Below, piece after piece: positions 980 to 62,113 of a stretch of DNA of 64,000 nucleotides. Under the pieces are notes generated by a model. It was given only the letters and a program-made list of their open reading frames with translations, was not told the origin of the DNA and made no database searches. Both the position numbers and the translations under genes were made by a program. Position 1 is the stretch's first letter; each line of letters starts with the position of its first letter. The DNA comes from an uncultured Methanosarcinales archaeon. Its GTDB lineage: Archaea > Nanobdellota > Nanobdellia > Woesearchaeales > JAGVZT01. The stretch is taken from NCBI GenBank assembly GCA_964444505.1, contig CAYUHF010000004.1, positions 28,583-92,582 on the forward strand, given 5' to 3'.

Positions 980-3900
980 CTAAGGTATTTCTATTACAAA
1001 AGTTGTTGATTTAGACCCTGCTGGTTCATCTTCTGGCACCCTTATAAGTATATCAACAACAACCTCGTCATTACTGTCAGAATAGTTCAGATCCTTGACT
1101 AACGTTTTATTCTCGGTAGAGAGATTCATCCATGTAGTTTGTGAGCCTGCATAGTCAAATGAGTTTGCTTCAGTCCTTTCATCAGCCTTGAACTGCAGGA
1201 ATGATGTATCTAATGGTGCAAGAGCGCTATCCCAGAAAGCACCAGTCACACCAAAGGTGACATTTACAAAAACATTGCCCATATTCTGTAGAACAAACGG
1301 ATAAGGGTCATCTGATGTTGTGTTTTTTGTTTCAGAAAGATTCATTGAACCAAAGCTGATGGACTCGTTGATGAACTTGACTTCTATGTAGCTCTCTGTT
1401 GTGAAGTTCCAGTCAGAGCTGTTGACATAATCTGTACCATCATATGCCTGGACACGCCAGAAGTATTGTGTGTCTAATTCAAGGTCAGATGTTGGTGTGT
1501 AGTTCTGGTCTTGTGTCTCTACTCCATCAATTGCCGGCGAACTGAAGTCAGAGTTATCATCTATCCAGATATTGTAAGTTAATGAGTCGCTATCGCCATC
1601 ACTACCAGACCATGTGAATTCAGGTCTTCTTGTCCTTATTGAAGTGTTGCCGTTTGTCGGAGTAAGCAGGTTAACTGTCGGCTGAGAGTTTTGGAGGGTT
1701 ATCTCTGCTGAACTCCAGTCAGAATAAAGCTCGCCATCAAATGTCCTCACAGTGCAGTTCCATGTTTCATCTTTAGTTGTGTTGCCGGAGCCAAGAGTTG
1801 ATATAACAGCATTGACATTGTCTGTGAGACCAGTTGTATTCCCGCCAAGCATCTCTTCTGTTCCATTGTACCAGAACCATTCGACAGTAAGAGTTGAATT
1901 CTCACCATCAGTTGGTGTTGCATTGCAACTGATATCATCATCAGTATAAGCAGTCGTAGGTGAGAAAGTAGGAGTTGTTATTTCGGGGTTTGTGTTACAG
2001 TTCTCTGAACTCCAGCTGTTATCCTCACCACAACATAAAGATCCAACTTGTGAACCAGTTGTGCTTTCAGTATCAACATTCCCGTCTATACTGACCTGCG
2101 AATTGCAGTCATAGAACTGACCGCTGTCACACAGTATAGAACTGCTTGAACTTCCGTCACTTAATATTGAGCCGTCATAACAGCAGTCATTGGTTGAAGA
2201 GCCTTCATAGTCTTCATCGCTGTTGCAGCAAAGCAGACCAGATGCATCATAACAGACACCATTGGCTGAATATGATCCACTTTCAATACTTGAATCACAT
2301 GCATTTCCCTCACTGCAGCTTGTACATGAACTTTGGTAGGCACTTCCATCATAGCATGCTTCACCACTGTTATCACATACTCCACCTGAAACACATATCC
2401 CATCAGGATCATAATCACCCCCTAGAACAGATGAATCACATGCATCCCAGTCAGATCCAGAAGAATAGCAAGTACTGCAGTCAGACTGGAAAGAAACATC
2501 ATCATAACAAACGTGTCCGGAGGTGTCACACCCTGATGCTGTACAGGTACCATCCTGAGTGAAGTTCCCTCCAGCATTACTGTCGCAACCATCTCCCGAA
2601 GTTGAACTGCATGATTCAAAGGAATCGTCTTCATCAATATGACATGGATTACCTGTACCACAATCCATTCTAATTTCACTGATATAATCACAACCATATG
2701 TTCCACCAGACGAGTAAGCAGAACTATCATAACATGTACCTGCAGATATACTGTCATAGTCGGTGCTATCTGTACTACAGCCTATTCCACTCTCCATATC
2801 ACAGGTAGTAGCACAATTTCCATTGACACATAATCCAGTACAGCACTCAGATCCAGTAAAGCATGAACTTGGCATTTCTTTACATGTTGAATCTGTTCTA
2901 AATTTCCATACCAACGAATTTGTTGTATCATAATCATCTTGAATAAGAACAGACCAGAGGTACGTGGTTCTTTCTGGTAGATTTTTTAGTTCAGTTGTTG
3001 CTTCTGATCCTGAAATAACATCTGTATTGTTTCCTTTGACTGAAAAATTTACAAATTGACCGGTTGCTACAACATAGCTGGGTGTTAAAAGGGGACTTGG
3101 AGTAGTACTCCCTATTCCTGTCTGGGCATCGCTATTCCATCCCCAGCACATTGCTGAACCATTGACCAAAATTCCACAAGTTGTTGGAGTATCGTCTCCA
3201 GGAAAGATTTGAATAAACCTATTTGTTGTGTTCACATATGAGACATTTACAACTTCGAGGGGTGTTGTGGAACCTATTCCTGTGTTTCCTTGTGGGTTTC
3301 CACCCCAGCAAACTGCCGAACCATTAAGAAGAACTCCACAAGTTGTATCGCCATGAGCTCTCAGGTACTTGAATCTATGTGTTGTATTAACATAAGTCGG
3401 AAACTCTATCTCACTTGGGGATAGACTTCCTATGCCTGTTTTTCCACGAAAGTTACTTCCCCAGCACATTGCTGAACCATTAGCCATCAGACCACAACTG
3501 TATTCCTTACCTGCACTTACAGATATGAATTGATTTGTAGTATTCACATAAATTGGACTTTGCACTTCTCCAGGACTGCTGCTTCCTGCACCACACTGAG
3601 AATCATAATTCTGCCCCCAGCACATTGCTGAACCATTTTCTAAAAGTCCCATTGTGTGGCGGTATGAACTAGGAGCTATTTCTACAAATTTACGCTCACC
3701 GGCAACATAAGAAGGCGAATTAACAGGACTGTTATCATTGCCAATACCTGTCTGTGAATAGGTGTTCCATCCCCAGCACATTCCAGAACCATTGATGAGG
3801 ATACCGCAAGTAGTATCTTCTCCTGCACTTATTGTCGTGAAGTTTGATGGTCCATCAACATATTGAGGGTCATGCTCTTCACTGGATGTATAACCTAGAC

Positions 3901-6900
3901 CCAATTGTCCATATCCATTTGCCCCCCAGCATAAAACAGATCCATTCTCAAGCAAACCACAGGTATGACCTTGTCCACATGCAACATCAATAAAACGGCC
4001 GTTGAAATCAACATATCTGGGGCTTGTGACAGGATCTGGTGAGTCAGACCCAATCCCTGTTTGGCCGTAGGCATTATAACCCCAGCACATCAGGGACCTG
4101 TTTTCAAGTATTCCGCAGGTATAATACTGCCCCACACACATTGACTGTATTTTATCCAGGAAAGTAACATTTGTGTTGTCACTTTCAGCATCTGTTACTG
4201 TAACATTCAAGGTGACATTGTAGTCTATTCCTCTGGCACCTGTGGGTGGATAATTAAGTGTATAAGTGGGATTATAGTTTTTTACTTCATATATAAAGTT
4301 CATTGTAGCTGTATCTGTGCCGTCTGTTACATTAGCCTGAACAGCATGTGTTCCTCTGTCAGAAATTGAAGGATTGTCAGTAATCTGTCCTGACTGGTCA
4401 ATATTGACAATCGAGTCATTGACATCCCAAGTCAGGTCATCATTATCTGCATCAGTGACGTTCAATTGAAGACTCATTGACTCATTATGGAAAAGGGCAT
4501 ACTCTGATATTGTTTCGTCCCAAGCAGGGGCACTATTCTGGATTGTTATTTCAGCAGATTTCCAGTCTGAGTAACTATTACCATCAAAACTCCTGACACT
4601 ACAGTTCCACACATCATCTTTTGATGTATCAGAAGAACTAAGTGTTGAGATAACAGCATTAGATCCATTACTCAGTCCTGTATTCTCTCCGCTATCATGC
4701 TCAGCACAGCTTGCTGTGCAGTTATACCATTTGTATTCAACTGAGAGGGTATTGTTTTCAGTATCAGTTGGTGTTGCATTGCATTTGATGTTGTCATCTG
4801 TGTAAGCTGTTGAAGGTGAGAATGTAGGTGTTGTTATGGTGGGTGCCTCATTCACATCAAATTCGCCACTTCCATATGTTTCAAGCTTTACATAATCTGT
4901 GTAAAGGGAGTTGTGTTCTTCTCTATATTTTTTATCTGGGTGTTTGATGTAGTATCCTTCAGCAGCAAATTCTAGTTTTGTGTAGTTTTCTGGTGCTCCA
5001 AACTCAAGATAATGCTCGTCACCTCTGTTCATAACAAGATAAATATTATCTGATTCCTGCACCATGCTGATGTTTGCATTGGTTATGGATGAGAGTTCCA
5101 CTATTTCTGAGCCATCAACTAATAAATAGATTCTGTCAATGTAGATAGTTTCTTCCAGCTCTCCAGTTATTTTTAGTTTAATCTTGTCTTCTTCAATTTG
5201 TGTTTGGGATATATCTGTAAAGTCAAGATATTCTCTACTTGATGATGTTGCTCCTCCAATGAAATCTGAAAGGAATTCATAACCATTATTATTGTAAGTG
5301 TAAATGTACGGTGAGGATCCTGATCTTACACACCTGACGGGCAAATCTACATTTTTTGACCTATAATAATGTTCAACAGACCCAGAACCAAACCTTACTA
5401 ACCAAGCATATGTTGAACTGTATTCCGATGCTGTACGGTAGGTACTAGATGCGGAGTCATCCCATTCAGGTTCACAGGTATTCTGACCTCCATCACCACC
5501 ATCCCATCCACATGCGTCCACTCCAAGCTGATAGGCCTGACAAGAATCTGGTAAGTCGTCATCATCATCGCAGTAAGGAAGATACCAGTCTTCAAACCCA
5601 CCATGTGACGACTGGCAGCACATATTGCAAGCCCAGTAAGAAACATCTGAACAGTCTCCCGGGCAGTCACCAGCATAGGTTCCATATTTGCCCCAGTCAG
5701 AATCACCTATTGTTTCAGACCACATATCACCGGTTGTTCCACAGTAAACAAAATCATTGCTTAAATTTGTGCTTGTGTTATAACAGTCACTATCAGCACA
5801 ATCAATATATCCATCTCCATCATTGTCTTCTCCGTCTGCACAGCCGTCTGCATAGTTTGTATTGTTCTCATCAGGCATATAAACATACTTTTCTGTTGTT
5901 ACCTTGAAAGCCACTTTTCCATTGGTGTTAACATATGCTTCAGGCGTTGAGGCTTCATAATGGTTAAGTGTCTGGTCAGAAAGTGATGTGAAATCAAGTA
6001 TGTCAAATTGAGTCCAGCTGCTGTCATTGTAATCCCATGCATACAGTGTGGTGTTGTATCCTGACTCATTTTCTCCATATCCTTCCCATGTAATATTAAG
6101 CATGCTTGGTTCTTTTGATGATATGTTGAAGACAAATATCTGGGTATCATATTCCCCTTTGGCATCGGCAAATTCAGTCACCCATCTTGAATTATCAGAC
6201 TCATTGATATTGCCGTAATCTGTTGAAGTGGCTTCGTTGTCATAATCAGTAGGACTTGATGCTGTACCATTTTTCTCAAACGCATTCTTGTTTGTGAGGT
6301 CAGAAAAGTCATAATCAATTATTTTGTCACATGTTCCATCTTCATCACATATCTGGGCATACCATTCAAGTGTACCATCTCCTGACTGGGATGTGTATTC
6401 TGCTTGTGTTGGTGAGGTTGAGTCAGTGGAAGAATATGCAATACATCCTGCCTGCTGGTTATAGTTACAGTTTGTGAAGTCAGTGCTGTCATCTATCAAC
6501 AGCCTTACATTCTTCCCACCGGTAGGATGAGACCAATAAGAAGTGAACATAACCTTTTCTCCCACACTTATTGTTGAGGCATTATCAGTTACATTAATCA
6601 TGGTCAGTACTTCAGGATCATATGCATAATCCGTAACACTGTTTTCGTGACTCTTAAACTCAAACAACAAAGTAGCATAACCTGCCTTATGCATATAGTT
6701 AGAAAGATAACCCGTATTGTCACAAGAATAATCCTCAACTAAAAGCTTTTCAATCTCCAATGAAATAGCAGATTCAAGTTCATTGTATTCAAACATGTTT
6801 CCTTGGAAATCAACCAACTTCAACTCATCCTTAAGTGACTCTTCGCCACACTTGATATCCAAAAACTCCATCTCGTCAAAGGTATCTGGATCATCAGTCA

Positions 6901-8230: not shown

Positions 8231-8711
8231 TCTTTTCCTTTGCCCTGTGATATATTGTCCAGATTGTCCTCTGATCTCTGTCCAAGAGCTTTGCGACCTC
8301 AGAATACCTCATGCCCTGATCTACAAGATACAGACAGATGCTCTCAAAACAAGTTAGTTTGCTTGTGAAAATATTGAGTGGTATTTTGACCTTGGAATCT
8401 TCTTTTAACTGCTCAGGGAGCTTGTTTTGAGCGTTCTTGTAAGAAACTGCAATATTGCTAGGTGACCTGTCGAGCATTTCTGATATTTCTTTATTTGATA
8501 GTCCTTTTTGGTGAAGATACTTTGTGATACTTTCAAGAATTCCAAGCTCTTTTGTGAATACTGAAGCAGGAAGATAGTCTTTTTTCTCGATTAATACATT
8601 TAATTCGCCTTCCAGGTCGTACTTGTCCCTGATATTTTTGTAAAATGATTCAAGAAACGCATCCAGCAACTTCCTGTCATTTTCTTCTAATATCTCTCGT
8701 ATTTCATGCAT
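8220..8711 (-). CDS. DNA-binding protein with two tandem sigma-70 region-4/LuxR-type HTH motifs. Its 3' end overlaps the start of the giant surface-protein gene by 11 nt.
   Basis: Two HTH-like segments: GLSNKEISEMLDRSPSNIAVSYKNAQNKL and MRYSEVAKLLDRDQRTIWTIYHRAKEK. The operon-like overlap with 980..8230 supports co-transcription. Confidence 0.55.
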   Translation of the reverse strand: MHEIREILEENDRKLLDAFLESFYKNIRDKYDLEGELNVLIEKKDYLPASVFTKELGILESITKYLHQKGLSNKEISEMLDRSPSNIAVSYKNAQNKLPEQLKEDSKVKIPLNIFTSKLTCFESICLYLVDQGMRYSEVAKLLDRDQRTIWTIYHRAKEKNEN

Positions 8712-8760
8712 GAGGTATTTTAAATCTTTTATGTATTTACTTAAATATTTTTCTATATTA

Positions 8761-8796
8761 TTAAATTATATATGTATTTTGTTAAATTATATATGT
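8761..8796. promoter_or_regulatory. Two direct copies of the 15-mer ttaaattatatatgt, 21 nt apart. They lie in the divergent promoter region between the HTH-regulator/giant-protein operon and thrS and are candidate operator sites.
   Basis: Exact 15-nt direct repeat at 8761-8775 and 8782-8796, read from the sequence, in an AT-rich intergenic region with TATA-like tracts. Confidence 0.3.
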
Positions 8797-9066
8797 TCAG
8801 CGACAATTTGTGAACAAGAATCTGGCCCAGTTGCGAAGCTTGCGCTATCCAGTGATCCAGAGCAAGCGACCCTCAAGAGAATACCAAATTAGACTAATTA
8901 AGAGGATTAACATAGCCACAAATATCTGCTCTTTTCAGTAATATTTAAATACACAAAATCTTTTCAAGCTGGTATGGCACGCAAAATTATTTATTTCTCA
9001 ACTACTACAGCGTAAGCCATACATTGTTATTTGGGTCACTAAAAGACATATTACAGGTGAGAGCAA

Positions 9067-10929
9067 ATGAAAGTTGAAATTGATGGAAAAACAAAGGATG
9101 TGGATAAGGGAATTAAACTGTCAGAAATCGCACCAAAAGGTGCTGTAGTTGCCAAACTCAACGGAAAACTGGTTGATTTAAGCACAGAAGTAACAGATGA
9201 CTCCACAATCACTTTCTATGATGCTCACACAGAGGAAGGTCTGGATATTTTAAGACACAGTGCAGCTCATGTCCTTGCTGATGCTGTTAAGAAATTATTT
9301 CCTGATGCACTACCGACAATTGGTCCTGTTGTTGATGAAGGTTTTTATTATGACTTCTATGCAGAGCCCTTTAGTCCAGAGGACTTAGAAAAGATCGAAG
9401 AAGAGATGAAAAAGATAGTCAAGAGAGACGAGAAGTTTAAAAGAATTGAGCTTGAGTTGGATGAGGCAAAAGAGCAGTTCAAGGATAACTCATACAAGAT
9501 TGAGATGGTTGAAGAGTTTGGAGAGAATCTTTCTGCATACAAACATGGTGATTTTATTGACCTTTGCAGAGGTCCTCATATTCCAAGCACGGGGTTCATA
9601 AAAGGTGTAAAACTAACTAAGGTTGCAGGAGCTTACTGGAGAGGAGATGCTAAAAACGAGCAGCTCCAGAGAATTTACGGTATTGCTTTCCCAACAAAAA
9701 AACAGCTTGAGGAATATGTAAAGCAGAGAGAAGAGGCAGAGAAAAGAGACCACAGAAAACTGGGCAAGAGATTAGAGCTTTTCAGCATGCATGAGGAAGG
9801 TCCTGGTTTTATCTTCTGGCTTCCTAATGGTCTTAAGGTTAAAAAAGCTCTTCTTGACTTCTGGAGAAAAAAACACAAAGAAGCTGACTATCTATTAATT
9901 GAAACCCCATTTATTCTGCACAGAAAGCTCTGGGAACAGTCAGGACACTGGGAAAACTACAAAGAAAAGATGTACACTTTGAAGATTGATGACCAGGACT
10001 TTGCAATAAAACCAATGAACTGCCCTGGCGGGATGCTTGTCTACAATGAAAAAATCCATTCATACAGGGAGTTTCCGTTGAGGGTTGGTGAGCTGGGGTT
10101 TGTGCACAGGCACGAGCAGTCAGGTGAGATAAGCGGACTTTTGAGAGTACGTGGATTTTTGCAGGATGACGCTCATATCTACATGACTCCTGAACAGCTT
10201 GAAGATGAAATAATCAATGTTGTCCAGCTGTGCCTTGAATTGTATGAACCGTTTGGTTTTGAATACGAGGTTGAGCTTTCAACAATGCCTGAAAAACATA
10301 TAGGTACAATCAAACAATGGGAGCACTCAACTAATGCTCTTAAAAATGCTCTTGACAGAATGGAAATAGATTACAGGACAAGTGCTGGCGAGGGTGCATT
10401 TTATGGTCCAAAGATTGACTTCCACTTGAAAGATGCTATTGGAAGAACCTGGCAGTGCGGTACAATCCAAGTTGATATGGCTTTACCCGAAAAGTTTGAT
10501 ATGACATATGAAGGAGAAGACGGTGAGAGGCATAGACCCATCACAATCCACAGGGCTCTTTATGGTAGTATCGAGAGGTTTTTGGGAATATTGATTGAGC
10601 ATTATGCTGGAAAATTCCCCATGTGGCTGAGTCCTGAACAGGTCAGGATAATGAGTGTTGCAGACAGGTTTAATCCGTATGCACAAAAGATTGCTGACAA
10701 ATACGAAGAGGCAGGAATCAAGGTAACAACTGATTTCAGATCTGAGTCTGTCGGTAAAAAGATTAGGGATGCGCAGGTTGACTATGTGAATTACATGATT
10801 ATTATTGGCGGAAGAGAAGAAGAAGCAGGAAAGGTTAATGTTCGGACAAGAGAGGAAGAAGTTTTGGGCATGATGGATCCTGATGAGTTCCTGGAAAAGA
10901 TGCTCACAGAGATAAGCGAGAAGAAATAG
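9067..10929 (+). CDS. thrS: Threonyl-tRNA synthetase
   Basis: N-terminal TGS domain and an editing domain with HSAAHVLADAV. Class II core motifs are present (FAIKPMNCPGGMLVY, RVRGFLQDDAHIY). Length is 620 aa. Confidence 0.95.
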   Translation: MKVEIDGKTKDVDKGIKLSEIAPKGAVVAKLNGKLVDLSTEVTDDSTITFYDAHTEEGLDILRHSAAHVLADAVKKLFPDALPTIGPVVDEGFYYDFYAEPFSPEDLEKIEEEMKKIVKRDEKFKRIELELDEAKEQFKDNSYKIEMVEEFGENLSAYKHGDFIDLCRGPHIPSTGFIKGVKLTKVAGAYWRGDAKNEQLQRIYGIAFPTKKQLEEYVKQREEAEKRDHRKLGKRLELFSMHEEGPGFIFWLPNGLKVKKALLDFWRKKHKEADYLLIETPFILHRKLWEQSGHWENYKEKMYTLKIDDQDFAIKPMNCPGGMLVYNEKIHSYREFPLRVGELGFVHRHEQSGEISGLLRVRGFLQDDAHIYMTPEQLEDEIINVVQLCLELYEPFGFEYEVELSTMPEKHIGTIKQWEHSTNALKNALDRMEIDYRTSAGEGAFYGPKIDFHLKDAIGRTWQCGTIQVDMALPEKFDMTYEGEDGERHRPITIHRALYGSIERFLGILIEHYAGKFPMWLSPEQVRIMSVADRFNPYAQKIADKYEEAGIKVTTDFRSESVGKKIRDAQVDYVNYMIIIGGREEEAGKVNVRTREEEVLGMMDPDEFLEKMLTEISEKK

Positions 10930-10941
10930 TACTATAGCCTA

Positions 10942-11121
10942 CCTTGGCCAGATGGAGCAGATCCTGTTTCTATACCTTTCGGCGATGATGTGGACGATGG
11001 CCGGACAGGGGATGCCCCCTCCGGGGTGTCCGGCGAGGAGTGCAACGACGACATCCGTCAACAACATCATCGCCGCAGGATCAAAGGAACAGGACAGGGA
11101 AGCCAACCTTCTGTGCCAAGG
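10942..11121 (+). ncRNA. GC-rich structured RNA of about 180 nt, the largest member of the GGCCAGAUGGAG…CUGUGCC element family. It may be a reduced SRP (7S-like) RNA, given its position immediately upstream of ffh and a CAGGaCaGGGAAGCC motif that resembles SRP domain IV.
   Basis: The 5' end (ccttggccagatgg) pairs with the 3' end (cttctgtgccaagg). There are long internal helices: GGCGAUGAUGU pairs with ACAUCAUCGCC, and GCCGGACA pairs with UGUCCGGC. Local GC content is far above the genome background. Confidence 0.4.
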
Positions 11122-11189
11122 CGGTGGGATTCAAATGAATTTGTTTCTTTTTCAATAATTTTAAAAGTAAAGGTGTATTTACAGGGATT

Positions 11190-13368: not shown

Positions 13369-13427
13369 ATTTGTCATATACTTTTGGGTTGCTTGCGATT
13401 TTTTTTAGCAAGCTATAAATATCCTAA

Positions 13428-13518
13428 TTTTTCCTCCGTGGCCAGATGGAGTTGACCGAATATTAGGTCAACGGAATAGGACGCGAAGCGACCGTCTGTG
13501 CCGGGGAGGAGGAAAAAG
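13428..13518 (+). ncRNA. Structured RNA element, family copy 1. Outer stem UUUUUCCUCC/GGAGGAAAAA. Conserved helix GGC-C-AGAUGG / CCGUCU-GU-GCC. Variable hairpin UUGACC-gaauauua-GGUCAA. Conserved 3' module AGGACGCGAAGCGACC.
   Basis: The fold was read directly from the sequence. The 5' side has U opposite G on the 3' side, which favours + strand reading. A TATAAATA box lies at 13414-13421 just upstream. Confidence 0.45.
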
Positions 13519-13658
13519 GATGAAGAATTTTCTTTGCCATGAGATGCTGACTTTAGAAATATTTTAATCTAAGTTTACTACTTTTGTATACTTTTAACTA
13601 ACAAATTCAAATCCAACTACCATAATAAATTTAAACTCAACCATATTCACAACAGCTT

Positions 13659-16566: not shown

Positions 16567-16714
16567 TGGGCCCGCCCAGATTTGAACTGGGGATATTCGC
16601 CGTGTAAGGGCGACGTCATTTGTGGCATCTTTTGACCATAGGCGGCCAAGCAAAAGCGCATGCCGTCCCTGTTTTGGTCCATATTAAAAGATGGAGCCAC
16701 TAGACCACGGGCCC
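16567..16714 (-). tRNA. tRNA-Val (anticodon UAC) carrying a ~75-nt intron inside the D-loop
   Basis: Minus strand reads GGGCCCG-UG-GUCU-AGUGG[intron]…UGAC-G-UCGCC-CUUACAC-GGCGA-AUAUC-CCCAG-UUCAAAU-CUGGG-CGGGCCC-A. The acceptor, anticodon and T arms are canonical. CCA is not encoded. Confidence 0.6.
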
Positions 16715-17699: not shown

Positions 17700-17811
17700 T
17701 TGAACACCTCTTTGTATTGTTTGATTGCTGTTTTATATTTAAAAGTTTCGAGAAATGCAATTATAAAAGGCTGGTTTATCCCAAAATGGCATAGAGGATA
17801 CTGATTAAGGT

Positions 17812-17890
17812 TCAATCCTTCCTCTCATGGCACAGACGGTCGCTTAGCGCCCTATTTCGTTCCTATGGAACTACATCTGGCCACGGAAGG
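17812..17890 (-). ncRNA. Structured RNA element, family copy 2, minus strand. Outer stem AUCCUUCC/GGAAGGAU, conserved GGCCAGAUGUAG…GGGCGCUAAGCGACCGUCUGUGCC, variable hairpin GUUCC-aua-GGAAC.
   Basis: Reverse complement of 17812-17890. The outer stem and the variable hairpin differ from copy 1 in a compensatory way. Confidence 0.45.
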
Positions 17891-17920
17891 ATTTCTCAAT
17901 TCTGCACAAAATATCAATCT

Positions 17921-36453: not shown

Positions 36454-36640
36454 GCATTGGTCTTTTTACTGTTATTGGAATTACTCCTTCTTTGTATTCC
36501 AGTTTTGCAATTGCAACAGGATTGTATCTGAGTTCTTCAAGCTCTTTATCAGACAGGTTGACTAGATAAGGGGCACCCATAGAAATCTGGAGTGCCCTTG
36601 ACCCAATCATTCTGGCCCTTTCAAACTTGGTGTATTTCAT
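36437..36640 (-). CDS. rpoK: DNA-directed RNA polymerase subunit Rpo6/RpoK
   Basis: [22 protein letters not shown] matches the RpoK/omega core. Confidence 0.75.
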
Positions 36641-37419
36641 TTTAGGAGTTTTCTCAGCTCTTCAGACTTTTTCATTCCAAGCTCAACCATCTGTTCAACT
36701 TCTTCAAGAGTCAATGCCTCGTCTTCTCCTTTCTGGAGAGCGCAAAGCTTGCCGTCTTCTGTAGTTGCTACTGTAAGTCTTGAATCTGCTGCCTCTTCCT
36801 CTTTTAAGAGCGGGTCAATTAACAGATGTTCTCCTATTCTTATGACTGTTACACCTACTGGTGTTTTTGTCAGTGGTACACTCTTGTCTGTCTTTTTCTT
36901 GTAGTCAACAACACCATCCTCGTAAACAGGAAATTTTGCATCTCTTAAAGCTGCTATAGCTCCAATTGAAGCTGCATCCCTGATGTTTCCTTCATGGTTG
37001 AGTGTGACAACATCTATGTTTAACAGCCAGCACTTTTCTCCTTTTTCTATACAGAGATCTTTCAGGTCTACTGCTTTGCTTTCCCGGATTGCCCTGTCAA
37101 CAACTCTTGCAATCTCTATTGCATTCTTGCCAGGCGGTCCTGGTTCAAATTCTGGAGATGACATAGGCAGAAGTTCTGCATTTACTATGATTACTCCTTC
37201 TTCTGGTCTGTCTGAGAATGGTGATCCAACACTCATCTTCACACCCACAATAACTTCTGTTTCTCCCATCTTGACCCTTGCTGAGCCCTCTGCTGTCCTT
37301 ACAGTACCAGTCTCAATCTCAACTGGCCTGTACTCTTCAAAGTCTCTGCCGTCATATCTTACTCCCTGTTCAAGGGATTTTAGCATGTGATTCTTTAAGT
37401 TCTCATTCATTATCATCAC
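36637..37419 (-). CDS. rrp42: Exosome complex component Rrp42 (RNase PH-like)
   Basis: RNase PH fold, with its position 3' of rrp41. Confidence 0.8.
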
Positions 37420-38119
37420 CTGTGTAACGCTCCTTCAATGCATTCTTCTGAATCTCGTAAATCTTTCCAGAAGCTTTTATTCCCATCTTTATCGCTTTGA
37501 TCAGGTCGTCTTTTTCAATTATTCCGTCCATCTGCAAAAGTGAGATTTTCTGTGTGCTTGGAACTATTGCCAGAGGAATGTCTGCTACCTCTCCTTCTGT
37601 TGCCTCTTCTTCATAATTCAGGTCAACAAGCAATGTATCATTCACTTTTCCTGCTGCTACAGCTACCACAAGATCGTTTAGTGGTATTCCTGCATCAGCT
37701 AAAGCCATTGATGCTGCACATATTCCTGCACATCGTGAGCCTGCATCTGTTTCTGTAAAGTTGATGTAAACATCTACAACTGCATTTGGATATTCACTAA
37801 GATCCACTACTGGCAAAAGTGCCTTCTGCGTCACAAGAGATATTTCTTCTGCTCTCCTGCTGTGGCCAGGTCTTATCCTGTCACCCATTCCCGAAAAAGG
37901 CATCATGCTGTACTGGCATCTCAGGACTCCTTTTTTAGGATCCTGCAGAAACCTTGGGTGCAGCTCTCTTGGACCATACACAGCTGCATATGCTGCTGTT
38001 TTTCCAATCTTGAAATATGCTGATCCGTCTGCTCTCTTAATTACTCCTGTCTTTGCTTGTATAGGTCTAAGCTCGTCTAGTTTTCTACCATCTGGTCTCT
38101 TGAAAGCCATTCTATTCAC
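37403..38119 (-). CDS. rrp41: Exosome complex exonuclease Rrp41
   Basis: RPDGR…LRP; RNase PH catalytic subunit features. Confidence 0.85.
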   Translation of the reverse strand: MNRMAFKRPDGRKLDELRPIQAKTGVIKRADGSAYFKIGKTAAYAAVYGPRELHPRFLQDPKKGVLRCQYSMMPFSGMGDRIRPGHSRRAEEISLVTQKALLPVVDLSEYPNAVVDVYINFTETDAGSRCAGICAASMALADAGIPLNDLVVAVAAGKVNDTLLVDLNYEEEATEGEVADIPLAIVPSTQKISLLQMDGIIEKDDLIKAIKMGIKASGKIYEIQKNALKERYTGDDNE

Positions 38120-38801
38120 CCTCTAAAAACTCTTTTACCACATCAGTAAGTCCACTGATATGCGACTTTCGATCAATCATCTTAATTGCTTCTACTGCCT
38201 TGACTTCATCTTTTGGTTTTCCTGATACCCATACAAGACCGTTTTGGCCAACAATAATCTCGCAGTTTGTTGCTGATTTTACTGTCATTACCATTGATCC
38301 GCCTCTCCCGATTACTCTTGGGACTTTGGCGCAGGATATCTTGACAACCCTTCCATCTTCCAGCTTTTTCAGCCTTCTGTCCTTCATGGTAAGGTCAATC
38401 AGATTCTGGCTTGTCACATTAATTATTTTGGTGACAACATAATCTCCGACATCAAACCATTTGGTCAGGTCAGCTCCTCTCTTGATGTACTGAGTGGTTG
38501 CCTCTTTCATTGAAATCATGGCAGTGTATGCAGAGTTAATCTCAACTCTCCATCCGCCAATACTAATATCACTAATTCTTCCAATAATAACATCATCGAC
38601 ACTTGGAAGATATCTTCCTGATAAAGGAATTAATTTGACTACCCTTTTTCTGGGGTTCATAAGTCCAAGCTTTTTTGCTATTATCTTATCATCTTTCCTG
38701 TAAGTTCCGTAGCCCGGAAGATAGTCCATGCCTTCTGCAAGCACTTCTCCTGGTGCCACAACATTTCTAGGTTCTACTTTAAGTTGCTCCAATATTATCA
38801 C
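38112..38801 (-). CDS. rrp4: Exosome RNA-binding subunit Rrp4 (S1 plus KH)
   Basis: S1 domain (GDYVVTKI) and a KH domain, upstream of rrp41. Confidence 0.75.
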   Translation of the reverse strand: MIILEQLKVEPRNVVAPGEVLAEGMDYLPGYGTYRKDDKIIAKKLGLMNPRKRVVKLIPLSGRYLPSVDDVIIGRISDISIGGWRVEINSAYTAMISMKEATTQYIKRGADLTKWFDVGDYVVTKIINVTSQNLIDLTMKDRRLKKLEDGRVVKISCAKVPRVIGRGGSMVMTVKSATNCEIIVGQNGLVWVSGKPKDEVKAVEAIKMIDRKSHISGLTDVVKEFLEGE

Positions 38802-39523
38802 CTTGTACTAACTATTTTACTTTCTAATTCTCCTTTTGTAAGTTTGTTCAATTTGTTGAAAAGCTGGTCCCTGACTCCTCCCGGGATTTCAATTACACTT
38901 ACCCATGAGCCGTCATCCTGCCAGTCTTCTTTGAGTATTTGTCCGTATTTTTTTACAATAGGATATGCTTTTACTGCAGATTCTGAGTCCATCTTGAGTT
39001 CAATTTCCTGTATCTCAATTCTTATCGGAATTACTGGCCTTAGTGCATCAATTATATCCTGCACTTGTTCTTTTGCACTCCTGAACTCATCAATCTTGAC
39101 CTTTGCCTCCTCCATTGCGTTTTTTATTCTCTGGGGAGGGTGTGGTGCGTGAGTCTTAGGGTCAACCGCCTGTCTCTGGATTATTGTGACAATCTGGTTG
39201 AACTTCTGCTCTCTTAGCTGTTTTCTGTACTCAGCTGTAAGCTGAATCTCGCCCTCTTTGATGATTGTCTCTGCAACTGCAAGCTCATCATCAGTCTCAA
39301 ATATCTGCTGCATTGCAGTCTCTGATGCCCTAAGTCCTTTCTTTGCATCAGAAAAAACATGCTCGCTTTTCAAAACATCTCTGATTGTGACATTTTTTCC
39401 CTGCTTGAATTCAACAGCTTTATCAGCGTCAACAACAACCTCAAACTCCTGTCCGCCTTTTCTTAAGCGAGCCAAGTTTAGGCTGATCTTATCTGACCTG
39501 TCATAAATGGCCTTTCTGGACAT
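38798..39523 (-). CDS. Ribosome maturation protein SBDS (Sdo1)
   Basis: FEVVVDADKAVEFKQGK; a conserved member of the exosome superoperon. Confidence 0.8.
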   Translation of the reverse strand: MSRKAIYDRSDKISLNLARLRKGGQEFEVVVDADKAVEFKQGKNVTIRDVLKSEHVFSDAKKGLRASETAMQQIFETDDELAVAETIIKEGEIQLTAEYRKQLREQKFNQIVTIIQRQAVDPKTHAPHPPQRIKNAMEEAKVKIDEFRSAKEQVQDIIDALRPVIPIRIEIQEIELKMDSESAVKAYPIVKKYGQILKEDWQDDGSWVSVIEIPGGVRDQLFNKLNKLTKGELESKIVSTR

Positions 39524-39526
39524 TTA

Positions 39527-40252
39527 TCATTTCACCTCTTTGTGGATCTTCTTGATCTCAGGGTTGTTCACACTAACCATTTTCTTGTCATCTGTCTTGA
39601 CATAAGCTGCATCAACCCTGTCCAGGTTGAACTCTTTTCCCAAGAACTTTGTTAGTGCTCCAATTGCAAGCTTCAGCCCGTCTTCTACACTCATTGATTC
39701 TTTGTAATCTGAATGAAGTATTGCTTCAACTTCAGCTTCTCCTTCTCCTATGACAACAGCCTTGTACTGGAAAAATATTCCTGTAGGGTCTGTCTCAAAC
39801 AGTTTTGGACCGTCTTCATCTACACCTGCTATAAGAAGTGAGACTCCAAATGGTCGAAGACCACCTGACTGTGTGCACATCTGTTTTAGATCTGCAATAT
39901 CTTTTACTATAGATGTTGTGTCAACAGGAGTGTCATATGTTACTCTATGCTGCTGTGCTTTTGTCCTTGCTCTTTCTATAAGCACTCTTGCGTCAGAAAG
40001 TATTCCTGAAGCTGTTGCAATGATATGATCATCAATCTGGTGTATTTTTTCTACTCCTTCTGCAACTATCAGCTTGTCTACTATTCTTTTATCTGTAACA
40101 AGAACTACTCCATCCTTACAGACTATTCCTATTGCTGTTGAGCCCTGTTTTACAGTCTTTTTTGCATACTCAACCTGCAATAATCTTCCGTCAGGACTAA
40201 ATAATGTTTTTGCTCTATCATAACCCATTAACTGGTGTGGCATTGGTTTCAT
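39527..40252 (-). CDS. psmA: Proteasome alpha subunit
   Basis: YDRAKTLFSPDGRLLQVEYA N-terminal motif. Confidence 0.9.
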   Translation of the reverse strand: MKPMPHQLMGYDRAKTLFSPDGRLLQVEYAKKTVKQGSTAIGIVCKDGVVLVTDKRIVDKLIVAEGVEKIHQIDDHIIATASGILSDARVLIERARTKAQQHRVTYDTPVDTTSIVKDIADLKQMCTQSGGLRPFGVSLLIAGVDEDGPKLFETDPTGIFFQYKAVVIGEGEAEVEAILHSDYKESMSVEDGLKLAIGALTKFLGKEFNLDRVDAAYVKTDDKKMVSVNNPEIKKIHKEVK

Positions 40253-47746: not shown

Positions 47747-47822
47747 TTATGCTTTTAATAATTTGAGAAACAGTGCTAGTAATTTCATGTTTAAGAAATA
47801 CTTTTATGTTTTTTATAGGAAT

Positions 47823-47907
47823 CCTTCCATGGCCAGGCAGAGGTTCGGTGTTTTGAGAACTGTAGCAGGGCAATCGTAAAATAAGAGCTTGACCGTCTTT
47901 GCCAGGG
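47823..47907 (+). ncRNA. Structured RNA element, family copy 3 (CCAUGGCCAGGCAGAGG…GACCGUCUUUGCCAGGG). Further hairpins extend to about 47968.
   Basis: Same terminal-helix arrangement as copies 0-2. Downstream stem-loops GUUCAAG-ggaaa-CUUGAAC and GUAAAUUC-guuu-UGAAUUUAC follow, then GGUGGGAUUC, which also follows copy 0. Confidence 0.35.
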
Positions 47908-47994
47908 TGTGTTCAAGGGAAACTTGAACGCCAGTAAATTCGTTTTGAATTTACGTTGGTGGGATTCCTACTAACCTAAGATAGAGAATTATTT

Positions 47995-58700: not shown

Positions 58701-59500
58701 TGGCATATGTGGTTGACAGATATAACGTTGGGGGTCTGTCAGTCGTAGACATCTCAGACAAATCTAATCCTGATTGTATAGGGTATGTTAACACATCTGA
58801 TCCAGATTTTTCTCTAACATACTGCGAAGCTGGCTATCCTGTTGGAGATTTTTATTACATGGTCGGGAGGAATGGAGTTGCTTTAATCGACATATCTGAT
58901 CCAATGAATCCTGATGTTGTTGACCAGCTTCTTGGGTCTAATGATCCCAATGTTTCTCTAAATCAACCACAGGATATTCAAGTTGTGGGTAACTATGCCT
59001 ATACTGTCAACTATCAAGGTCATTCCTTCTCAGTTATAAAACTCGATGGTGCAAATATTCCGACCGCAAACATAGGATCAATAAATTCTGATACCCTCAA
59101 CGTTATGGAGAATCTTCACGTTTCGGGGGATATTTACTCATATGGAATCCATTCCAAAGATGGTCTTTTTACAGGCGACCTAGCATCCAGTGGAGATATT
59201 TATGCTGTCGGCGACATCACTGCCGGTGGCTCGTGCTGTGCTGACTATGTGTTTGAGGATAACTATTCTCTTATGAGCCTTGAAGAGCTTGAGAAATTTG
59301 TTAATGAGAATAAGCATCTTCCGGGCATTTCATGTGATGATTCTGTTAGTCTGAGCAGGCAGGAGAAGTTGGTTGAGAAGATTGAGGAATTAACTCTTTA
59401 TACTTTTGAGCAGGAAAGAAAGATAAAAGAACAAAAACAGGAAATAGAAGATATGAAAAACAGATTAGAAAAACTCGAAACAACTATTCAGGACCCTTAG
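55790..59500 (+). CDS. Large (1236 aa) secreted/cell-surface protein, paralog of 51043..55215. It has its own signal peptide, a distinct N-region, an internal copy of the tail-fibre-like module, LVIVD repeats, and a near-identical C-terminal module.
   Basis: MKKNYLLFLFVISLASTICFS signal sequence; internal RVGIGTTSPLSIFHVNGN…GSPVKVGGGLNMTSGGLYF; LVIVD-like repeats (YAYVVS…LSIIDISDPENP); a C-terminal ~90 aa block about 93% nucleotide-identical to 54870-55215. Confidence 0.8.
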   Translation: MKKNYLLFLFVISLASTICFSETLYDKTASAAAENKGLMPPENTLQKYTSRGQWLLEVPSERTRISSTYKIMNSDNTFSEEYISILHQKSLHYKKDGKWEKIDPTLEKIPGGWKTKDNDLSVKFTNYNTDWPFSISRKGEYTLKQKEFAIGYYDDKFNILETFKSSNALLESDSNSIIYPEVFPGINIKYTSDHDYVKKDVIIRQSAKEKLLDEISNFDQEGWLTLGTRIDFSENNGWYIDMQEGEEKRGPIHIRKGESANDQLSRGIIYDESGNRIIAKYKLIDDNRYGKLLLTMIPLEWVKKSNGDITIDPTYYATSADGYFHFVNETYSNVRDGSTGDRGCYDTFDYVCAGQHENTGSSGYTIYRGYYEFNTTGIPDDATITEARIFLNEELVSNDYDFNVSIYHYNWSSPLCNSQYSNWVGAYGASASFEGILVDTADGWTGDTWKNISLNTSRINPGDYTRYSIVSEEDVNNNVPPDNTEAWVCPNSADTAGTTEDPYLSITYTTPTYVTGWHNWTSETIDGGSSQYRPNILKASWTLDGSDNITPKFQVLGSDTGSFSGEESVYPGSGEYYQDGTSYDINNNVALDISSDINASYRYWKVRVSITTGTDTGDTPRVEEIVLEDSKSLTLQSSGQRVGIGTTSPLSIFHVNGNSLFVGDVNITGTLYGGSPVKVGGGLNMTSGGLYFSDGSSMNSAPAGGLWTNSSHDATYTDGNVGIGTSSPDDQLDVDPSTPDGISEISKGGSIPNMGYPWGLHVVGDYAYVVSPTYQSLSIIDISDPENPLGLSELTSSDLGIDFRAHDIFVSSGYAYCSLQDSGLAVIDISNPLTPYLVGLVNSSDPDISSFDSTYTFYVSGKYAYLGDTTYDNGFHGAFGVVDISDPSNPDAIAMVNSSDSNITHMKLPQKIKVSGGYAYVVSGGYGGGSLAIINITDPAQPDAVSEIINGTDPDCPNWGSLYNLDIRGNLAYVVDRYNVGGLSVVDISDKSNPDCIGYVNTSDPDFSLTYCEAGYPVGDFYYMVGRNGVALIDISDPMNPDVVDQLLGSNDPNVSLNQPQDIQVVGNYAYTVNYQGHSFSVIKLDGANIPTANIGSINSDTLNVMENLHVSGDIYSYGIHSKDGLFTGDLASSGDIYAVGDITAGGSCCADYVFEDNYSLMSLEELEKFVNENKHLPGISCDDSVSLSRQEKLVEKIEELTLYTFEQERKIKEQKQEIEDMKNRLEKLETTIQDP

Positions 59501-60311: not shown

Positions 60312-60349
60312 AGACGGGTGTTCCCTACCTATGGGATGCTGGAGAAATC

Positions 60350-60811: not shown

Positions 60812-60975
60812 CTAAATAACTGCCATAGCATCTGAAGCAGAAAGCCAATAAACCCGATAAGAATCATCCCAAGACCTGAAACCTTGACAATGGTCTTGAA
60901 TTCTTCACTGGTTGGCTTTTTTGTAATCTTCAGAACTCTTATGTATTCTTTGAATGTTTTTTTAAGTTTTTTCAT
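60805..60975 (-). CDS. secE: Protein translocase subunit SecE/Sec61-gamma
   Basis: Hand-translated 57-aa ORF ending in a transmembrane helix (GLGMILIGFIGFLLQMLW). It lies between ftsZ and spt5 as in other archaea. Confidence 0.55.
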
Positions 60976-60976
60976 T

Positions 60977-62071: not shown

Positions 62072-62113
62072 AATAACACCTCATACCCTTATAAAGTACT
62101 TTCATATTTAAAT

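Follow-up and report, generated by a model that had tools for sequence, protein, structure and literature searches.

What are the GC-rich structured segments that recur between genes of an uncultivated DPANN (Woesearchaeota-like) archaeon: small RNAs of their own, signals within messenger RNAs, or repeats of DNA? The whole stretch that was analysed (64 kb, below the window) contains four copies of such a segment, named here c10942, c13428, c17812 and c47823 (Table 1). Each is present where an earlier sequence-only reading had placed it. Together they form a true family of structured elements that is present in several copies.

Exact copies of the 12-mer GGCCAGATGGAG are located at 10946 and 13440, and there are further matches at 17871-17882(-), with one mismatch, and at 47831, with three mismatches. 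The 3' module GACCGTCTGTGCC is present with zero to two mismatches at 13490, 17829-17841(-), 47891 and 11105. A 5' module with a 3' module 20-220 nt after it, both on one strand, was observed four times, whereas the mean number expected is 0.045 (maximum 1) from 200 third-order Markov simulations. The copies c13428 and c17812 are 91% identical over 33 nt (E 2e-6) and 95% identical over 19 nt (short-word BLAST). Each copy stands out as a local peak of GC against 39.5% in the genome, and all fold far better than shuffled sequence (z-scores -6.2, -4.6, -2.8 and -4.5). They lie in sense orientation between tandem housekeeping genes of the same direction, so the proposed intergenic, gene-sense placement holds for the entire set. 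Three copies are clustered within 7 kb, and the two most similar ones form an inverted pair 4.3 kb apart. The suggested fifth copy at 8822-8872 is not supported: neither the family's covariance model (E<=10, filters off) nor short-word BLAST recovers it, and it has only GGCC(C)AG and AAGCGACC in common with the family.

Table 1. Positions of the element copies, their helices and linkers, partial modules and adjacent boxes in the window
Feature	Position	Strand	Sequence or description
c10942	10938-11131	+	largest copy, about 194 nt
c10942 P0	10938-43 / 11123-28	+	CCUACC / GGUGGG
c10942 P1	10944-55 / 11107-19	+	UUGGC-CAGAUGG / CCUUCUG-U-GCCAA
c10942 variable arm	10956-11106	+	GC-rich rod of ~150 nt; perfect 10-, 12- and 8-bp stems; branched tip
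c13428	13421-13521	+	101 nt; encloses 13428-13518, the interval of the sequence-only reading
c13428 extended P0	13421-37 / 13505-21	+	AUCCU-AA-UUUUUCCUCC / GGAGGAGGAA-AA-AGGAU
c13428 P1	13439-49 / 13492-503	+	UGGC-CAGAUGG / CCGUCUG-U-GCCG
c13428 P2	13451-72	+	GUUGACC[GAAUAUUA]GGUCAAC
c13428 J23	13473-81	+	GGAAUAGGA
c13428 P3	13482-90	+	CGC[GAA]GCG
c17812	17814-17893	-	80 nt
c17812 P0	17893-85 / 17822-14	-	AAUCCUUCC / GGAAGGAUU
c17812 P1	17884-73 / 17839-27	-	GUGGC-CAGAUGU / CCGUCUG-U-GCCAU
c17812 GAGA bulge	17826-23	-	
c17812 P2	17871-59	-	GUUCC[AUA]GGAAC
c17812 J23	17858-50	-	GAAAUAGGG
c17812 P3	17849-41	-	CGC[UAA]GCG
c47823	47819-47969	+	most diverged copy, about 150 nt
c47823 P0	47819-27 / 47958-66	+	AAUCCUUCC / GGUGGGAUU
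c47823 P1	47828-42 / 47893-905	+	5' strand AUGGCCAGGCAGAGG; 3' strand CCGUCUU-U-GCCAG
Solo partial 3' module	13531-13544	+	TCTTTGCCATGAGA; 13/14 matches to UCUGUGCCAUGAGA of the family
Second partial 3' module	17785-17794	-	TCTATGCCAT; read by eye; about 35 nt past the 3' module of c17812 itself
TATAAATA box	13414-13421	+	abuts c13428; preceded by a T8 tract (13400-07) in a small hairpin
TTTATA box	47811-47816	+	abuts c47823; preceded by T5

Each copy folds into a long bulged hairpin, in which the outer stem P0 is followed by P1, a stem that hardly varies (GGC-C-AGAUGG / CCGUCU-GU-GCC) and has a C/GU internal loop as well as a bulged U. The junction that P1 closes is composed of a purine-rich strand GRAAUAGGR (J23), a tiny GCGAAGC-type hairpin (P3) and a variable arm. 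The arm ranges from 5 bp to about 150 nt, and the sequence of the basal helix is conserved. In c47823 an inner hairpin of its own replaces P2 and P3, and two additional hairpins (47907-31 and 47934-54) separate P1 from the 3' strand of P0. The 5' and 3' modules are collinear in all four copies. The full 3' module AGGRCGCKAAGCGACC, which the sequence-only reading had given to all of them, was found only in c13428 and c17812, c10942 and c47823 retaining only its final 12-17 nt. The elements do not appear to be coding. The reading frame opened by an ATG within P1 has 68 codons in c10942 and only 6 in c13428 and 1 in c17812, and thus is not a gene.

The evidence favours a structure at the level of RNA, or of a single strand, with the polarity of the genes. 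The sense folds are stronger than the antisense ones by 5-17 kcal/mol in three copies; the numbers of G·U pairs per copy are 4, 2, 8 and 2 in the sense strand versus 0, 0, 0 and 5 in the antisense strand; and P0 and P1 have about nine positions of the G·U type versus one A×C position. In an alignment of three copies 81% of cells are paired, compared to 40-53% in slid controls. Only four pairs in this alignment changed on both sides, all of them in P0, and 31 of 500 shuffles equal that number; P1 has no double changes. The outer stems, initially described as compensatory, are largely homologous: the 5' strand AAUCCUUCC is identical in two copies and the 3' strand GGUGGGAUU in two others, with one clear flip between U-A and A-U, the remaining changes being one-sided. 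The claim of selection on RNA structure, as opposed to a DNA repeat, is overstated, as covariation across the four paralogs is formally non-significant. Several signs are those of a DNA repeat, namely a solo relic of the 3' module, the absence of the family from relatives and the clustering of three copies in 7 kb.

No known RNA class accounts for the elements. Rfam 15 produced no matches at the gathering score and none at E<=1 in the whole window. At E<=10, in a 9.5-kb region and two isolated copies, only generic long-hairpin (miRNA-precursor) noise was obtained. In the isolated elements this noise consisted of MIR4371, MIR6426, RAGATH-5, Methylosinus-1 and sR52, scoring 8-19 bits against thresholds of 50-145 bits; the sR52 match (E=5.8) falls on the purine tail. 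None of the Rfam families, including hammerhead, Y RNA, RNase P, 5S and riboswitches, came near its gathering threshold. The initial statement that the elements could not be placed in a known class thus agrees with Rfam from the gathering score through E<=10. The same is true of the statement that they are not tRNAs: ARAGORN found no tRNAs, and the Rfam tRNA model (RF00005) finds none of the elements at E<=10, its sole match being a true tRNA-Val at 16575-16630. The segment CCGUGGCCAGAUGG partly resembles tRNA positions 5-19, a resemblance contradicted by its pairing with the distal 3' module. The intron in the D-loop of this tRNA-Val starts with CUCCAUCU, the complement of AGAUGGAG; since local alignment in both orientations is no better than that of shuffled sequence (z<=1.3), the likeness was dismissed as a coincidence.

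Boxes of C/D and H/ACA RNAs are missing from the sequence, as had been noted. Where a C/D RNA would have a C box (RUGAUGA) close to its 5' end and a D box (CUGA) close to its 3' end, the 5' module has AGAUGGA or AGAUGUA and the 3' module UCUGU or UCUUU, with no tandem G·A pairs. For H/ACA, in which ACA would follow the lower stem, the trinucleotide after P1 is GGG, AUG, AGG or AAG, and the 5' side of the would-be pocket has 1-2 nt (A/AG). A bulge-helix-bulge (BHB), with a 4-bp helix between 3-nt bulges on opposite strands, does not fit either. At the P0/P1a and P1a/P1b boundaries of every copy it is the 3' strand that has the unpaired bases (GAGA/GGGA/GC and a single U), while the 5' strand has 0-1 nt there; by contrast, in the tRNA-Val intron of the window the helix GUGG/CCAC is flanked by CUC and AAA on opposite strands. 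The BHB, C/D and H/ACA patterns, and also the cores of K-turns and hammerheads, were compared by eye with the aligned copies and did not fit.

The signal recognition particle (SRP) RNA deserves separate mention, as the sequence-only reading had suggested it for the largest copy. The elements would then be divergent members or fragments of this class or of its Alu domain, which is hardly credible. The copy c10942 indeed lies immediately upstream of SRP54 and is a long rod with a branched tip, and the order of helix, hairpin, linker, hairpin and helix in the small copies is superficially similar to that of the Alu 5' domain. However, the SRP covariance models have no match at E<=10 with lax filters, either on the 236-nt segment or on the 9.5-kb region, and a GNAR tetraloop with AGCA in the helix-8 topology was not seen by eye in 10956-11106. 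The spacer between the threonyl-tRNA synthetase (ThrRS) gene and SRP54 contains no such RNA in the closest relatives. Seven 21-kb SRP54 neighbourhoods also lack SRP RNA, and thus its linkage to SRP54 is not a feature of the clade. Likeness to archaeal SRP (7S) RNA is limited to the SRP54-adjacent position, rod-like shape and branched apex of c10942, whereas the motifs of helices 8 and 6 are missing from the elements, the length is about 190 nt as compared to about 300 nt, and the ends of c10942 are common to three small paralogs that cannot be SRP RNAs. Moreover, SRP RNA as a universal gene would be expected across related genomes, while the element has no homolog in 80 related loci. The SRP RNA reading is largely ruled out.

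The family seems to be confined to one lineage. The covariance-model search, which the sequence-only reading had proposed for related archaea, yielded no homologs in 80 Woesearchaeota SRP54 neighbourhoods (1.17 Mb), and a motif-pair scan of related loci gave a chance match only. In the closest relatives, the orthologous spacers between ThrRS and SRP54 do not contain the element. An exact-module scan of JGI metagenomes produced one chance match, inside a coding gene, and viral contigs produced none. A search of 5.8 billion proteins gave 73% identity for the best SRP54 other than the sequence itself, and thus no comparison at the species or genus level is possible. Analogous GC-rich repeat families were considered in the relatives, where the GC islands are mostly intron-containing tRNA genes. 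A 7.1-kb Logan contig is identical and shorter, and does not extend the sequence beyond the window.

The surroundings of the copies contain several candidate signals. The distance from the upstream stop codon is 9-73 nt: c10942 starts 9 nt past the ThrRS stop (10929), and c17812 starts 27 nt past the stop of DnaJ (17921). T-rich runs occur 10-13 nt past two copies, before the TATA box of the next gene. For example, c10942 is followed by the run TTTGTTTCTTTTTC at 11140-53 and then by SRP54's own TATA box (11160-67). Neither a TATA box nor a T-tract was found between c47823 and the ATG at 47995, and therefore this copy probably belongs to the leader or operon spacer of the gene that starts there. 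TATA-like boxes abut c13428 and c47823. In this genome, TATA boxes and starts are about 26-30 nt apart, as judged from SRP54, DUF2207 and tRNA-Val. At this distance the box of c13428 predicts a start near A13444, inside the 5' strand of P1, and that of c47823 a start near A47840, at the homologous position. Thus the upstream box noted in the sequence-only reading does exist as TATAAATA, but its predicted start is within P1 and not upstream of the element, so that the transcripts of c13428 and c47823 starting from these boxes would lose P0 and half of P1.

The solo 3' module next to c13428 begins 29 nt past the 3' module of the copy itself and has a 10-mer in common with c17812 and a 9-mer in common with c47823. 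Either it is what remains of a duplication or of a copy that has decayed, or it offers the 5' strand of P1 another 3' partner; as a relic, it points to turnover at the DNA level. The evidence for the similar module near c17812 is weaker.

Our tentative preference, made by analogy, is a structured repeat of the REP/MITE-like kind that is specific to the lineage, is transcribed and, as RNA, serves for punctuation or stability. The family would consist of genome-specific GC-rich intergenic modules transcribed with the neighbouring genes or in their sense, and would work in the mode of bacterial REP/BIME or Correia-type elements. As RNA, a very stable hairpin after or between cistrons may serve as punctuation: it would block decay by the 3'->5' exosome or in the 5'->3' direction and would set stable mRNA ends beside oligo-U terminators. 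The invariant P1 and the junction would probably be the binding or processing site of one sequence-specific protein. As DNA, the family may spread and decay by duplication, insertion or recombination, which would explain both its confinement to the lineage and the relics. Transcription and the RNA ends are predicted from sequence features. This preference is supported by the count above chance, the strong folds, the sense bias, the location between tandem genes and the two copies 9 and 27 nt past stop codons. It is also supported by the T-rich runs, the exosome genes Rrp41, Rrp42 and Rrp4 encoded in the same window (36637-38729), the conserved base with a variable arm, the relic, the absence elsewhere and the lack of an Rfam family. 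On the other hand, no transposase, RAYT, integrase or reverse transcriptase was seen in the 47 ORFs scanned (about 51 kb of the window; the scan left out five ORFs at 59484-63603 and the giant ORFs), and none of the four copies has target-site duplications at the P0 ends. Four copies in 64 kb is the count, while REP-like families are defined by many per genome. The copy c13428, behind the T8 tract and a good TATA box, is more like an independent small transcription unit, and the conserved junction of J23 and P3 seems over-elaborate for a simple exonuclease roadblock.

According to the main rival, the copies are paralogous stand-alone genes of small RNAs of about 60-200 nt. This is possible, although we consider it somewhat less likely. 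Their products would be small RNAs related as siblings, or else the RNA subunit of a putative RNP, and each gene would have its own promoter and oligo-T terminator. P1 and the junction would be the core to which protein binds, and the variable arm would be an expansion segment. In this case the T8 terminator and TATAAATA upstream of c13428 and TTTTCTTT downstream would bracket a transcription unit, the next gene having its own TATA box. The canonical TTTATA of c47823 has an equal spacing to the homologous A of AGA(U)GG, and ATATTTTG is located about 30 nt upstream of GUGGC in c17812. A conserved core, maintained helices and a variable arm are also in line with RNA genes, and by analogy the architecture resembles that of Y-RNA-like RNPs, in which a long terminal helix has conserved bulges, the interior varies and a U-tract is present. 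However, c10942 has no promoter-like motif and follows a stop codon by 9 nt, and c47823 continues into the next gene with no terminator. The predicted starts are not at a fixed distance from P0 and P1, and with two of them the 5' strands of the very helices that define the family would be lost. The family is also missing from all relatives searched, a relic half-copy is present, and no partner protein gene is evident in the window. A more novel reading, which we regard as quite unlikely, is an undescribed class of small structured RNAs of DPANN, with a protein-binding or catalytic three-way-junction core formed by the invariant P1 with its bulged U, the linker GRAAUAGGR and a GAA-triloop hairpin. 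Its arm could expand from 5 bp to about 150 nt. Expression of the paralogs from internal promoters as well as by read-through would yield two isoforms that differ in activity, one a closed hairpin and the other open and truncated at the 5' end.

There are two further readings. The element may be purely a DNA-level object, that is, a mobile palindrome of the MITE/REP/PATE type or a site of recombination; its hairpin would then be relevant only when the DNA is single-stranded or cruciform, and its transcription would be incidental. We find this unlikely. The ends are indeed similar to terminal inverted repeats, as AATCCTTCC...GGAAGGATT of c17812 is a perfect 9-bp inverted repeat, and the perfect 8-12-bp stems of the c10942 rod suggest a young palindrome; the relic half-copy, the lineage restriction and the inverted pair point in the same direction. 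P3 is the GCGAAGC motif, an extraordinarily stable mini-hairpin of DNA. However, the excess of G·U (G·T) pairs over A×C and the stronger sense fold would not be expected from a symmetric cruciform, although G·T is tolerated as well by elements that act as single-stranded DNA, such as those of the IS200/IS605 or attC type. The copies take the direction of the local genes, including those of a short plus-strand block at 46.9-49 kb, and not one replication direction; and there are neither target-site duplications nor a transposase or Y1/RAYT gene among the ORFs scanned. Finally, the element could be a cis-regulatory leader, in which the pyrimidine-rich 5' strand of P0 (CCUCC/CCUUCC/CCUACC, similar to an anti-Shine-Dalgarno sequence) sequesters the purine-rich 3' strand (GGAGG/GGAAGG/GGUGGG, similar to a Shine-Dalgarno box) and controls the downstream start, possibly depending on whether transcription starts upstream of the element or inside it. 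Internal TATA boxes would indeed give transcripts that lack the sequestering strand. The Shine-Dalgarno core in this genome is GGUG/GAGGUG, and mini-ORFs are found at GGAGG-7 nt-AUG (13508-13522; 15 codons) and at GGUGGG-8 nt-AUG (11123-11136; 7 codons); c47823 is directly upstream of a gene with no TATA box of its own. However, the mini-ORFs are not conserved, and none is in register in c17812; SRP54, DUF2207 and PGI have their own promoters downstream of the element; the genes flanking the copies are functionally unrelated; and in c47823 the distance of 28 nt between GGUGGG and the ATG is too large for a Shine-Dalgarno role. A leader of this kind is improbable indeed.

Among known systems, the transcribed repeat that we prefer is close to REP/BIME, which also consist of short, imperfect, GC-rich palindromes whose stem sequence and bulges are conserved, and which are strictly intergenic, present in multiple copies and species-specific in sequence. 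These are co-transcribed with the flanking genes, often just past stop codons, as is suggested for the element by its position and sense bias. In enterobacteria and pseudomonads REP elements can shield upstream mRNA from 3'->5' exonucleases. The likeness is in general features, the GTAG-type 5' tetranucleotide being outside the comparison. Unlike REP/BIME, the element has an archaeal host. REP is a simple hairpin of 35-40 nt, whereas the element combines a two-tier stem with a three-way junction, and has a linker that is single-stranded and conserved and an arm whose size ranges from 5 bp to about 150 nt. There are tens to hundreds of REP copies per genome versus four extragenic copies in the 64 kb considered here, and no Pfam transposase domain corresponding to RAYT (the IS200/IS605-type Y1 transposase) occurs in the 47 ORFs. 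With MITEs, such as the Correia/NEMIS elements of Neisseria and the SM-type elements of Sulfolobus, the family shares inverted-repeat ends, variable or mosaic interiors, lineage restriction and relic fragments, and these are transcribed into long processed hairpins that affect the stability of neighbouring mRNAs. However, no direct repeat flanks any of the four copies and no parent IS with matching ends was found in the window. Further, MITE interiors are usually neutral, whereas J23 and P3 in the core of the element are conserved and its G·U content is strand-asymmetric.

Y RNAs and other small RNP scaffolds are similar in size (about 80-110 nt), in the end-to-end helix with conserved bulges around a variable interior, in having several clustered paralogs and in the U-tract that follows. 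They differ in that the element has no match to Rfam Y_RNA or YrlA and is not conserved in related genomes, one copy is probably inside an mRNA leader, and no Ro/TROVE gene is among the ORFs scanned. Integron attC sites have imperfectly paired conserved ends, extrahelical bases, a centre of variable length, structure conserved over sequence, single-strand bias and the orientation of adjacent genes, as here. However, there are no R''/R' core sites (RYYYAAC / GTTRRRY) and no integrase is among the ORFs scanned; instead of cassettes, the neighbours are single-copy housekeeping genes (ThrRS, SRP54, DnaJ, PGI and the like) with their own promoters.

The family overturns no current views, and its general significance is limited by the apparent restriction to one lineage. 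To our knowledge, almost no non-coding RNA has been experimentally characterised in DPANN archaea, whose genomes are tiny. If the preferred reading is true, the elements would be among the first candidate post-transcriptional punctuation or stability signals in DPANN, and would provide a handle for locating the protein that binds or processes them. If instead they are mobile palindromes, they would document REP/MITE-like repeat dynamics in a reduced archaeal genome.

The first and second conserved strands of the element, namely the 5' and 3' modules claimed in the sequence-only reading, are present in four intervals of the window, here called copies c10942, c13428, c17812 and c47823. The 5' 12-mer GGCCAGATGGAG occurs without mismatches at 10946 and 13440; the versions at 17871-17882(-) and 47831 deviate from it in one and three positions, respectively. 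The 3' module GACCGTCTGTGCC occurs with 0-2 mismatches at 13490, 17829-17841(-), 47891 and 11105. The 5' module is followed by the 3' module on the same strand at 20-220 nt four times in the window, the expectation from 200 third-order Markov simulations of the window being 0.045 on average and 1 at maximum. Between c13428 and c17812, a segment of 33 nt is 91% identical (E 2e-6) and another of 19 nt is 95% identical. All copies are local peaks of GC content, which is 39.5% in the window and up to 80% in 40-nt windows of c10942, and three of the four are found inside 7 kb. Three copies were used to build a covariance model, with which they score 108, 87 and 54 bits. Owing to its 150-nt insertion, c10942 gives only a weak match (12.5 bits, E 0.25), and no further copies were found in the window by this model with filters off.

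Coordinates of the elements and of other features. Positions are those of the window, except for L-numbers, which are related Woesearchaeota loci from the set of 80 SRP54 neighbourhoods
Feature	Position (strand)	Distance from upstream stop (gene)	TATA-like box	Predicted start
c10942	10938-11131 (+)	9 nt (ThrRS)	no promoter-like motif	
c13428	13421-13521 (+)	60 nt (Hjc-like)	TATAAATA, 13414-13421, right after T8 tract	~A13444
c17812	17814-17893 (-)	27 nt (DnaJ)	ATATTTTG (weaker), 17907-17914	~17884
c47823	47819-47969 (+)	73 nt (A24 peptidase)	TTTATA, 47811-47816, after T5 tract	~A47840
Hairpin, T8 in loop	13389-13413			
Hairpin	8835-8870			
tRNA-Val(UAC) gene	16567-16714 (-)			
tRNA-Val intron	about 16622-16696			
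Exosome superoperon	36637-40252 (-)			
Divergent spacer	8711-9067			
Giant ORF, 2416 aa	980-8230 (-)			
Giant ORF, 1390 aa	51043-55215 (+)			
Giant ORF, 1236 aa	55790-59500 (+)			
tRNA-like GC island, L026	~9804-9911			
tRNA-like GC island, L030	~9756-9879			
tRNA-like GC island, L043	~2725-2836			
tRNA-like GC island, L059	~4431-4546			
tRNA-like GC island, L060	~9406-9515			
tRNA-like GC island, L072	~3158-3359			
AdoCbl-II riboswitch match, L033	5148-5224 (-)			

The outer stem P0 is homologous between copies, with the 5' strand AAUCCUUCC, the 3' strand GGWRGGAUU and the common outermost pairing AUCC/GGAU. The P0 of c13428 is longer, with 15 bp interrupted by an A·A/A·A internal loop, and extends over 13421-13521. 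P0 encloses the stem P1, (G)UGGC-CAGAUGG with CCGUCUG-U-GCCR, which hardly varies between copies. Every copy has the bulged U in P1 and unpaired purines (GAGA, GGGA or GC) in the 3' strand at the P0-P1 boundary. The junction closed by P1 holds, in the two short copies, the hairpin P2 (GUUGACC/GGUCAAC or GUUCC/GGAAC), a purine linker (GGAAUAGGA or GAAAUAGGG) and the 3-bp hairpin P3 (CGC-GAA/UAA-GCG). In c10942, a rod of about 150 nt takes the place of P2; it has a branched tip and contains perfect stems of 10, 12 and 8 bp. Copy c47823 has its own inner hairpin and two additional hairpins between P1 and the P0 3' strand. The four folds, at -46.1 kcal/mol (z -6.2), -34.0 (z -4.6), -48.9 (z -2.8) and -88.3 (z -4.5), are much more stable than those of dinucleotide shuffles.

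The sequence-only reading ascribed compensatory changes to selection on RNA structure. The structural evidence is weaker than it implied. In the three-copy alignment 81% of cells are paired versus 40-53% with slid partners. Double-sided changes occur in four pairs only, all in P0, and were matched by 31 of 500 shuffles; P1 has five invariant pairs, three with one-sided changes and none with double changes. In a manual four-copy table, P0 has one clean U-A to A-U flip between c17812 and c10942, with c47823 as the U·U intermediate, and P1 of c47823 has A-U changed to G·U and U·G to C-G. More convincing is the arm, which differs between copies in sequence or length and yet is a hairpin in all of them. 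The strands are also asymmetric: in three copies the sense fold exceeds the antisense one in stability by 11, 5 and 17 kcal/mol, in the fourth by 2 kcal/mol, and there are 4, 2, 8 and 2 G·U pairs in the sense folds versus 0, 0, 0 and 5 in the antisense ones.

Judging by the annotation of all SRP54 relatives, the best of which is 73% identical, the host is a DPANN archaeon similar to Woesearchaeota. The window is core chromosome, with genes for ThrRS, SRP54, Hjc-related nuclease, DUF2207, AlaX-like protein, DnaK/DnaJ/Hsp20, PGI, TIM, TFB, Rrp41, Rrp42, Rrp4, SBDS, proteasome alpha, enolase and transketolase. A scan of 47 ORFs, covering about 51 kb of the window apart from the giant ORFs and five others at 59484-63603, revealed no gene for a transposase, integrase, reverse transcriptase or TROVE protein. 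The three giant ORFs probably encode surface proteins and contain internal coding repeats: a 132-nt tandem unit occurs six times at 53853-54631, repeats at 3111-4123 are spaced by 156-162 nt (one by 309 nt), and segments of 160-300 nt are duplicated between the two plus-strand ORFs. An HTH-protein gene (-) and ThrRS (+) are separated by a divergent spacer of 356 bp, very rich in AT, which coincides with a sign change of gene orientation and cumulative GC skew, and contains ATCCAGTGATCCAG; orc1/cdc6 was not found among the ORFs scanned. Two hairpins with an identical GCTTGC/GCAAGC stem, one between the Hjc-like gene and c13428, the other inside the region 8822-8872 proposed earlier as a fifth copy, may be a second small hairpin family or a chance match.

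All four elements lie between two genes of the same direction and are oriented likewise, and T-rich runs are located within 10-13 nt 3' of c10942 and c13428. TATA-like boxes adjoin three of the four. Given a TATA-to-start spacing of about 26-30 nt, calibrated on SRP54, DUF2207 and the tRNA-Val gene, the predicted starts lie inside P1 or at its edge, A13444 and A47840 being the homologous A of AGA(U)GG in the P1 5' strand. Such starts would yield 5'-truncated isoforms unable to form P0. Thus two kinds of transcripts are conceivable, read-through ones with the closed P0/P1 hairpin and internally initiated ones without the 5' strands. The presence of G·U pairs in P0 suggests that the complete hairpin may well be formed by some RNA.

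It is very unlikely that the elements belong to a known RNA class. Rfam 15 gave no matches at the gathering score or at E<=1, and isolated copies produced only noise of the miRNA-precursor hairpin type. ARAGORN found no tRNA, and the sequences contain no C/D boxes, ACA boxes or tandem G·A K-turns. Every bulge is on one strand; in this the elements differ from the tRNA-Val intron, located 1-3 kb from two copies, which has a genuine bulge-helix-bulge. The earlier suggestion that the largest copy may be SRP RNA fails on model score, on motifs and on comparison with relatives. In the three closest ones, the spacer between ThrRS and SRP54 is AT-rich or coding, without any such RNA, and SRP RNA is absent from seven SRP54 neighbourhoods.

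The tRNA-Val gene is the sole tRNA gene found in the 64 kb. Its D-loop intron of about 75 nt follows G18, and the junctions form a relaxed bulge-helix-bulge with a GUGG/CCAC helix and CUC and AAA bulges on opposite strands. The gene was missed by ARAGORN, and Rfam covers positions 9-63 only (E=2.8); after in silico intron removal ARAGORN reports tRNA-Val(tac). Many related Woesearchaeota have GC-rich islands resembling tRNA genes whose introns are multiple or non-canonical, and several islands lie immediately 5' of SRP54; ARAGORN recognizes only 4 of 49. A locus of archaeon GW2011_AR15 contains an AdoCbl-II riboswitch match (40 bits, gathering threshold 36.5), which is unusual in an archaeon.

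The covariance model has no matches in 1.17 Mb from 80 related genomes. The gapped exact-module scan of JGI metagenomes produced a single chance match inside an ORF, and viral contigs gave none. The sole other assembly of the organism is identical across its 7.1 kb. Within the reach of these searches, the family is restricted to the host lineage. It has no curated match and is visible in one MAG only.

We tentatively consider the best fit to be a palindromic repeat that is transcribed, specific to this genome and of the REP/BIME or Correia type: the base is conserved while the tip varies freely, the copies are in sense orientation, follow stop codons and precede T-runs, and the family is limited to one lineage and has left a putative relic. 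The latter is a solo 14-mer TCTTTGCCATGAGA downstream of c13428, agreeing with the family P1 3' strand plus bulge in 13 of 14 positions; it and a weaker partial module TCTATGCCAT downstream of c17812 either remain from duplication and decay at the DNA level or serve as alternative partners for pairing. The main rival, a set of paralogous small RNA genes, is possible but doubtful; it agrees with the conserved junction and with the terminator-promoter-element-terminator layout of c13428. A purely DNA-level palindrome is unlikely, and the strand asymmetry in fold energy and G·U pairs speaks for a single-stranded molecule with the polarity of the genes, in the simplest case RNA.

A leader sequestering the Shine-Dalgarno box seems quite unlikely. 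SRP54 and DUF2207, the next genes after c10942 and c13428, look leaderless, as each has a TTTAAA-type box of its own some 27 nt upstream of the ATG, and PGI has its own TATA box and a GAGGUG Shine-Dalgarno sequence. Copy c47823 is probably part of the leader of the gene at 47995, since there is neither a TATA nor a Shine-Dalgarno box between it and the ATG.

Species-specific palindromic repeats are a familiar phenomenon; to our knowledge, DPANN archaea have not been reported to contain REP-like structured repeats. Structure and placement of the copies are observed, whereas transcription, protection and protein binding are inferences. As a transcribed repeat, the element would form a very stable hairpin punctuating transcripts. 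It might protect them from the exosome encoded in the window, define 3' ends, or serve as a processing or protein-binding site, which would be the invariant P1 with the junction. The classical archaeal exosome superoperon, with an Rrp42/Rrp41-like RNase PH pair, Rrp4, SBDS and proteasome alpha, shows that the organism is equipped for the 3'->5' decay against which a terminal hairpin would act.
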